This document shows positions 30,801 through 31,286 of a stretch of DNA of 64,000 nucleotides, piece after piece. Under the pieces are notes generated by a model. The model was not told the origin of the DNA, made no database searches, and worked only from the letters and a program-made list of their open reading frames with translations. How positions within the stretch are numbered: position 1 is the first letter of the stretch; the number at the start of each line of letters is the position of its first letter. Origin of the DNA: Escherichia phage pEC-M719-6WT.2; sequence record OQ845958.1. The stretch is one strand, 5' to 3'. The position numbers and the translations under genes were made by a program.

Positions 30801-31011
30801 ATTGACTATTGAAGGTTCTGAAGAAGCTCTGAAGATGTTTGTTGACTGGTTCCACGAACAGGGCGAACAAGGCTTTATGGAATGTTGGGACGGTGGCCAA
30901 TGGAATGGTAAAGAAATTGTTTATCCGAGTACATATATCTCTGTTCGTGGCGGATATGATGGCCTTCGTTTGGTAGAATATGATAATGCATCTGATGAGG
31001 AAGTGAAATGA
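30793..31011 (+). CDS. hypothetical acidic protein
   Basis: 72-aa ORF, overlap with neighbours. Confidence 0.5.
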   Translation: MSKLTIEGSEEALKMFVDWFHEQGEQGFMECWDGGQWNGKEIVYPSTYISVRGGYDGLRLVEYDNASDEEVK

Positions 31012-31286
31012 TTGAAGATATCAAAGGTTATAAGCCACACACCGACGATAAAATCGGTAAAGTGAATGCTATTAAAGATGCTGAAGTTCGATTGGGCTTA
31101 ATCTTTAAAGCATTAGAAGAAGAATATGTTGAAGCCTTTACAGGCTCGGGTGTTGATAAAATGAGTGATGAAGAATTCAACCTCACTCATGAACGCATCA
31201 CCCAGATTCGTAATGCAATTGACCGTCTGAAAGAAGCAAGCATGTGGGCGTGTCGTTCCGTTTTCCAACCCGAGGAAAAATACTAA
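31008..31286 (+). CDS. hypothetical protein (vs-region small protein)
   Basis: 92-aa ORF, ATGA overlap; T4 vs.x region by synteny. Confidence 0.5.

Follow-up and report, generated by a model that had tools for sequence, protein, structure and literature searches.

Escherichia phage pEC-M719-6WT.2 very probably encodes a Gaprivervirus ortholog of the T4 Vs.4/Acb2 cyclic-nucleotide sponge

INTRODUCTION

The vs.4 gene of phage T4 is acb2, and its product is an anti-CBASS sponge (PMC12657218). The T4 protein assembles into a hexamer, in which three molecules of cGAMP are held (Kd, about 30 nM; Jenson et al. 2023, PMC10097602). Base stacking on the ligand involves Y8 and F82, hydrogen bonds and salt bridges are contributed by Y8, H11, K23, and R79, and the oligomer interfaces involve L29, A66, A73, and A77 (and F33); the substitutions T12I, S74N, and A77I inactivate the protein (PMC10097602). 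In the paper describing Panoptes, Y8A is the binding-site mutant of T4 Acb2, and F82C is an escaper with reduced binding (PMC12657218). Expression of T4 acb1 and acb2 has been reported as mainly middle/late (bioRxiv 10.64898/2026.03.30.715471).

The ligand spectrum varies among Acb2 homologs (PMC10312549). The Acb2 of Pseudomonas phage PaMx33 (p26; structures 8H2J, 8H2X, and 8IXZ) has a dinucleotide site at Y11 and K26 and a second, high-affinity pocket for cyclic trinucleotides such as cA3, which involves R67 and T74 and is enlarged by a kink at E64 (Cao et al., PMC10312549). Trinucleotide binding is absent in the Acb2 proteins of T4 and of Serratia phage CHI14, the latter of which binds cGAMP and not cA3, and the single substitution D61R did not enable the T4 protein to bind cA3 (PMC10312549). 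Acb2_43 and Tad1 also belong to hairpin domain family PF24729 and follow the principle of a hexameric sponge, but Acb2_43 is set apart by its description as a protein that binds 3'cADPR and not CBASS signals, with a 3'cADPR pocket made by added N- and C-terminal beta-strands and no Tyr pocket of the CBASS type. Acb1, the product of T4 gene 57B, also counters CBASS but is an unrelated 2H-phosphoesterase, which cleaves the signals rather than sequestering them (PMC10419184).

Here, we compare these systems with a locus in a 64,000-nucleotide stretch of the genome of Escherichia phage pEC-M719-6WT.2 (OQ845958.1), referred to below as the window; all coordinates are positions within it. The original prediction had picked out a 92-amino-acid (aa) open reading frame (ORF) at 31008 as a candidate Acb2-type sponge, being the counterpart by position of T4 vs.4, which does encode this sponge according to the cited work.

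RESULTS AND DISCUSSION

Locus organization

The predicted acb2 coding sequence occupies positions 31008 to 31286 on the plus strand, running from an ATG at 31008 to a TAA stop at 31284 to 31286 and encoding 92 aa. A putative Shine-Dalgarno motif (GAGGA, 30997 to 31001, plus strand) lies 6 nt before the ATG, within the end of the upstream gene. Packing is tight on both sides, with ATGA at 31008 to 31011 overlapping the acb2 start with the TGA stop of the upstream 72-aa ORF and TAATG at 31284 to 31288 overlapping its stop with the start of the downstream 101-aa ORF. Because starts and stops also overlap between vs.8 and vs.7 (30504 to 30507) and between vs.7 and vs.5 (30793 to 30800), we regard the region from 29980 to 31591, with its five small genes, as one tightly coupled plus-strand block. 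Opposite-strand ORFs in the interval reach at most 59 aa, and all lie inside conserved plus-strand genes. A scan of positions 28600 to 33100 for sigma-70 promoters and terminators yielded 16 promoter-like sites, compared with 12.8 ± 3.9 in shuffled sequences, and no convincing promoter-like site just upstream of acb2. No second copy of acb2 was found in the 64-kb window when it was searched with the proteins of the T4 locus.

The 3.2-kb segment around acb2 matches T4-like phages of the genus Gaprivervirus. Escherichia phage vB_EcoM_RZ ranks first (97.9%, with 100% of the query covered); Yersinia phage vB_YenM_P8, DK-13, and Shigella phage SP18 come next. Each window ORF was compared with the annotated T4 locus by blastp, and the matches were one-to-one. 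The annotated T4 order is denV, vs.8, vs.7, vs.6, vs.5, vs.4, vs.3, regB, in agreement with the earlier claim that the vs.x genes of T4 lie between denV and regB. The window run, denV–Ip–vs.8–vs.7–vs.5–vs.4–vs.3–regB, reproduces this order gene for gene, minus vs.6, which has no counterpart in the whole 64-kb window (best tblastn E value, 0.37).

Two well-matched plus-strand genes anchor this synteny, namely, denV, encoding endonuclease V (29051 to 29467; Pfam Pyr_excise, 58.4 bits; 76.8% identity to T4 DenV), and regB, encoding an endoribonuclease (31648 to 32106; Pfam REGB_T4, 241.6 bits; 59.7% identity to T4 RegB). Between them, and likewise on the plus strand, are a gene for an internal head protein (29516 to 29815; PHROG "internal head protein") and homologs of vs.8 (29980 to 30507; 175 aa; phrog_1488; 38% identity to T4 Vs.8), vs.7 (between vs.8 and vs.5; 48% identity to T4 Vs.7), vs.5 (30793 to 31011; 72 aa; phrog_1986; 48.6% identity to T4 Vs.5, E = 1.6e-20), and vs.3 (31286 to 31591; 101 aa from the ATG at 31286; 67% identity to T4 Vs.3, E = 8e-47; labeled vs.3 in SP18). 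In this T4-like genome, acb2 is flanked by vs.5 and vs.3 within the stretch from denV to regB and is second upstream of regB, with the vs.3 homolog intervening. This is the slot of T4 vs.4, and the 92-aa ORF is its positional counterpart, as originally proposed. The equivalent gene is labeled vs.4 in the record of Shigella phage SP18 and "vs.4 gene product" in that of vB_EcoM_RZ. Farther out, the window encodes lysozyme e, a NUDIX protein, vs.1, vs, a macro-domain protein, and thymidine kinase; T4 Vs.1 and Vs have 66% and 45% identity, respectively, to window ORFs (blastp).

Two of the neighboring genes deserve comment. The vs.8 homolog carries a P-loop-like GGRQTGKTS motif, has weak, sub-cutoff matches to the terminase large-subunit N-terminal domain and to AAA domains, and has an alignment to T4 Vs.8 that starts no earlier than T4 residue 41. 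Its family, phrog_1488, has no assigned function, and the protein may be a small uncharacterized NTPase. In the vB_EcoM_RZ record, the Vs.5 homolog (window positions 30793 to 31011) is labeled "pyrimidine dimer DNA glycosylase." This looks like an annotation error because the Vs.5 homolog has no Pfam match and the true denV is the gene at 29051 to 29467.

Family assignment and predicted fold

Based on sequence, profile, and structure comparisons, we conclude that the gene at 31008 to 31286 is very probably a Gaprivervirus ortholog of the T4 Vs.4/Acb2 cyclic-nucleotide sponge, for which homology would predict hexamer formation, ligand binding, and CBASS inhibition. When the ORFs between 29980 and 31591 were compared with Vs.4/Acb2, the ORF at 31008 matched; T4 Vs.4 aligns with its product over the full length (92/88 aa) at 65.6% identity (blastp, E = 4e-39). 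A phmmer search of all PDB chains returned a sole strong full-length match, 7UQ2 "Vs.4," the Vs.4–cGAMP crystal structure (E = 3.1e-30). The protein scores 57.2 bits against Pfam PF24729 (Acb2/Tad1 hairpin; Acb2_Tad1_hairpin), for which the gathering cutoff is 27, and matches phrog_717 in PHROGs (E = 1.5e-27), the family by which Jenson et al. collected Vs.4 homologs (PMC10097602). We found 130 homologs in a large protein collection; PF24729 is present in every one, and several bear the name "Acb2/Tad1 hairpin domain-containing protein." A tblastn search found the ORF in 1,231 phage records (1,225 at ≥80% coverage).

Similarity to PaMx33 Acb2, a member of the same Pfam family and fold, appeared at the profile level only. 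A profile of 77 homologs matched 7UQ2 at E = 2e-40 and the PaMx33 structures 8H2J, 8H2X, and 8IXZ at E = 1.2e-5. In the PaMx33 match, the IKGY, K, and QP motifs line up, and PaMx33 Y11, K26, and P90 correspond to Y8, K23, and P88; identity in the Foldseek alignments was 14 to 16%. CHI14 Acb2, like the window protein a homolog from a T4-like phage, has the same termini, including the IEDIKGY sequence. Other phmmer matches in the PDB, to a trypanosome haptoglobin-haemoglobin receptor and to flagellin (E values of 0.1 to 0.5), were set aside as generic coiled-helix similarity. NCBIfam gave no match for the acb2 ORF, for either of its neighbors, or for the Acb1 homolog.

We built an AlphaFold2 monomer model on the alignment of 77 homologs (mean pLDDT, 83.4; residues 1 to 4 and 90 to 92 at low confidence). 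The model is a two-helix hairpin with helices at residues 13 to 45 and 54 to 85 (DSSP), the second of which is one unbroken, high-confidence helix. The top six Foldseek matches in the PDB were three chains of 7UQ2 and three chains of PaMx33 Acb2 (8H2X/8H2J), and the comparison with 7UQ2 (E of about 1e-6; TM score, 0.70; RMSD, 4.2 Å) is consistent with the same hairpin fold as T4 Vs.4. The Acb2-type identity, which had been guessed from synteny and size, now has sequence, profile, and fold support.

We also considered that the protein might be a Thoeris-inhibiting variant like Acb2_43, sequestering 3'cADPR in place of CBASS dinucleotides. Acb2_43 binds its ligand through an extra N-terminal beta-strand (T4, H5, L6, and V7) and does not inhibit CBASS, whereas DSSP assigned no strands in our monomer model, which strands formed between protomers could escape, and the full T4 dinucleotide pocket is unchanged (Y8, H11, K23, R83, and F86). 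This reading is very improbable. No Tad1 chain was among the PDB sequence matches at E ≤ 1 in either the phmmer or the profile search.

As an ortholog of T4 Vs.4/Acb2, the gene is an ordinary and already catalogued one, its family, structure, mechanism, orthology, and subclade membership all having been published. Close relatives with near-identical proteins, e.g., YP_003734253.1 of NC_014260, are listed among the Acb2 homologs in Table S1 of Hadary et al. (bioRxiv 10.1101/2025.08.24.671296). The window-like central segment is absent from the supplementary table of tested proteins (file 2) of the same study.

Functional residues and sequence variation

Using a six-sequence alignment for residue mapping, we found that the window protein shares every one of T4 Y8, H11, T12, K23, L29, F33, A66, A73, S74, A77, R79, F82, and P84, which in its own numbering are Y8, H11, T12, K23, L29, F33, A70, A77, S78, A81, R83, F86, and P88. 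Predicted hexamer-interface residues L29, F33, A70, A77, and A81 are thereby the same as T4 L29, F33, A66, A73, and A77. The sole mutation-defined position that has changed is T4 L60, which is I64 here, a conservative replacement. Across the 77 homologs, Y8, H11, K23, R83, and F86 are invariant, and conservation at the mapped functional positions is complete or at least 90%.

Conservation divides the plus-strand gene into three parts. Codons 1 to 33 (31008 to 31106) encode a conserved N-terminal segment with the predicted contacts Y8, H11, and K23, the helix cap T12, and the interface residues L29 and F33, and codons 74 to 92 (31227 to 31283) encode a conserved C-terminal segment with A77, S78, A81, R83, F86, and P88. 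Between these, codons 34 to 73 (31107 to 31226) cover the variable end of helix 1, the hairpin tip, and the start of helix 2. Mean identity to the query among 122 homologs was 90%, 40%, and 93% for residues 1 to 33, 34 to 73, and 74 to 92, respectively. The comparison with T4 Vs.4 follows the same division: residues 1 to 33 and 74 to 92 are nearly identical, including all cGAMP contacts (R79/R83 and F82/F86), whereas the central 40 residues have diverged, the T4 CEDC motif is missing, and the tip is a net 4 aa longer in the window protein.

Codons were aligned for 40 intact loci, comprising that of the window, three from GenBank, and the others from IMG/VR. This gave dN/dS ratios in the window-like clade of 0.04 for the N terminus, 0.17 for the helix-1 end and tip, 0.20 for the helix-2 start, and 0.02 for the C terminus, all of them rough values since dS was saturated (above 0.8). 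These results show that acb2 is a real, constrained gene with nearly frozen predicted ligand-binding ends and a relaxed center. Diversifying selection on the center was not detected, with dN/dS at 0.17 to 0.20 in the window-like clade and 0.43 to 0.50 among all sequences. Because the ratio for the center was always below 1, positive selection is unsupported, and the data indicate relaxed constraint only.

The same data bear on whether the ORF could be a chance occurrence or a decayed, nonfunctional remnant, to which we give almost no credence. It is intact and full length, with a ribosome-binding site and coupled neighbors, its dN/dS values are 0.02 to 0.2, and it has been kept in 1,231 phage records. 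Nothing in the window speaks for decay, yet loss does occur, as two IMG/VR relatives have frameshifted or truncated copies. In one of them (L016, IMGVR_UViG_2974573174_000001, positions 2501 to 2758), the acb2 C terminus is frameshifted after KEASMW, with loss of R83 and F86; in the other (L048, IMGVR_UViG_638276010_000001, positions 2501 to 2772), the gene is cut off after about residue 70. These damaged copies could have arisen by natural loss, of the kind that Panoptes escape mutants show, or could be artifacts of sequencing.

At the DNA level, similarity to VR7-type Gapriverviruses extends from vs.8 up to position 31127, breaks, and resumes at 31226. The center of acb2 is thus a mosaic junction, and the central "allele" varies among phages within a single genus. 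Some relatives, such as L004, have no vs.3-like DNA between acb2 and regB. These features are typical of a recombination-prone, plastic region in the neighborhood of acb2. In the breakpoint comparison of window positions 31127 to 31226 and 31286 to 31768 with L047, L004, and L008, regB identity fell to about 69%.

Predicted mechanism and ligand spectrum

As an ortholog of T4 Vs.4, the window protein would assemble six two-helix hairpins into a hexamer with three bound cyclic dinucleotides, which would be 3',3'-cGAMP and related signals of CBASS. Each pocket would lie between two protomers, formed by their N- and C-terminal segments; Y8 and F86 would stack on the ligand bases, and H11, K23, and R83 would hold the ligand. 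Sequestration of the signal would leave CBASS effectors such as CapV inactive and allow the phage to complete its cycle. A likely corollary is that the protein would bind 2',3'-c-di-AMP, as the T4 and Bas38 Acb2 proteins do, and would thereby deplete this decoy and trigger Panoptes (PMC12657218).

We predict, from sequence and model, that the protein is a dinucleotide-only sponge like T4 Acb2 that would not bind cA3 or cAAG, because PaMx33 R67 and T74 and the Pro-Gly kink are missing and helix 2 is unbroken. The positions equivalent to the PaMx33 trinucleotide pocket are occupied by E37, H61, I64, T65, R68, and D72. The features of the trinucleotide-binding subclass (PaMx33 and JBD67) are absent: T65 and D72 occupy the positions of R67 and T74, E62-R63-I64 replaces the kink E64-P65-G66, and the second, cA3-binding pocket of PaMx33 Acb2 is expected to be missing. 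Like the window protein, CHI14 Acb2 is acidic at the position of PaMx33 T74 (E76 in CHI14, D72 here), but it differs in its Arg at the R67 position (T65 here) and in its longer hairpin tip.

Divergence of the center from T4 opens other readings. Along this segment, T4 Y37, A57, L60, D61, T64, and T68 are replaced by E, H, I, T, R, and D, respectively. Given that residues 34 to 73 are about 40% conserved and that the tip carries a net 4-aa insertion, affinity or spectrum could differ from those of T4 Acb2. A stronger version is that an Acb2-fold sponge with intact dinucleotide pockets has, beside them, a second pocket for a cyclic trinucleotide or another signal, created by remodeling around the three-fold axis (E37, H61, I64, T65, R68, and D72). 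Consistent with this, all five T4 residues reported to block cA3 binding (Y37, A57, L60, D61, and T64) differ here, as E37, H61, I64, T65, and R68 (PMC10312549); R63, Q66, I67, R68, A70, and I71 are constant in 15 window-like sequences; and homologs of known, differing spectrum exist (PMC10312549). In addition, R68, which is invariant in the window-like clade, is on the pocket-lining face about one helical turn from the PaMx33 R67 position. Against a second pocket, both PaMx33 R67 and T74 are missing, the enlarging kink is replaced within a modeled helix (residues 54 to 85) that is unbroken, and D61R alone gave T4 Acb2 no cA3 binding (PMC10312549). The dN/dS of about 0.2 in the center likewise points to relaxed constraint and not to a pocket under strong selection. 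We regard a second pocket as unlikely. A related idea, quite unlikely in our view, is that the window-like subclade of Tevenvirinae Acb2, marked by the conserved helix-2 motif (H/N)(E/S)R(I/L)(T/A)QIR(N/T)AI, has evolved a second site on the three-fold axis with a specificity unlike that of T4, the center being a specificity module that related phages swap by recombination.

Acb1 homolog and other genes in the window

The window also contains an acb1 (gene 57B) homolog on the plus strand at 15245 to 15700, which scores 200.6 bits against PF23474 (Acb1) and whose product has 83% identity to T4 gp57B over 152 aa. Judged by sequence, the phage carries both Acb1 and Acb2 genes, like T4. A gp57A homolog lies just upstream of the acb1 homolog, at 15012 to 15242.

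Recognizing both anti-CBASS genes in one T4-like (Gaprivervirus) phage should aid annotation, given that many records say "hypothetical protein" and that at least one neighboring gene is misnamed in database records. It also bears on host-range prediction, as the phage is likely to be resistant to weak-signal CBASS and likely to be sensitive to Acb2-sensing Panoptes.

Several other genes around the locus may be of interest. Two plus-strand ORFs, at 28726 to 28995 and at 29516 to 29815, both start with MKTYQEF(L/I)(A/T)E and match T4 IpII over the first 11 to 12 residues only. The shared MKTYQEF N-terminal stretch is presumably the capsid-targeting leader of T4 internal proteins, and these ORFs likely encode internal proteins that are injected and whose bodies are novel. 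Where T4 has Tk.4, the window encodes a 154-aa macro-domain protein (33018 to 33482, plus strand; Pfam PF01661, 29.3 bits versus a cutoff of 22), which could reverse ADP-ribosylation and might bear on defense systems. A phage zinc-binding-domain protein is encoded at 33642 to 33848.
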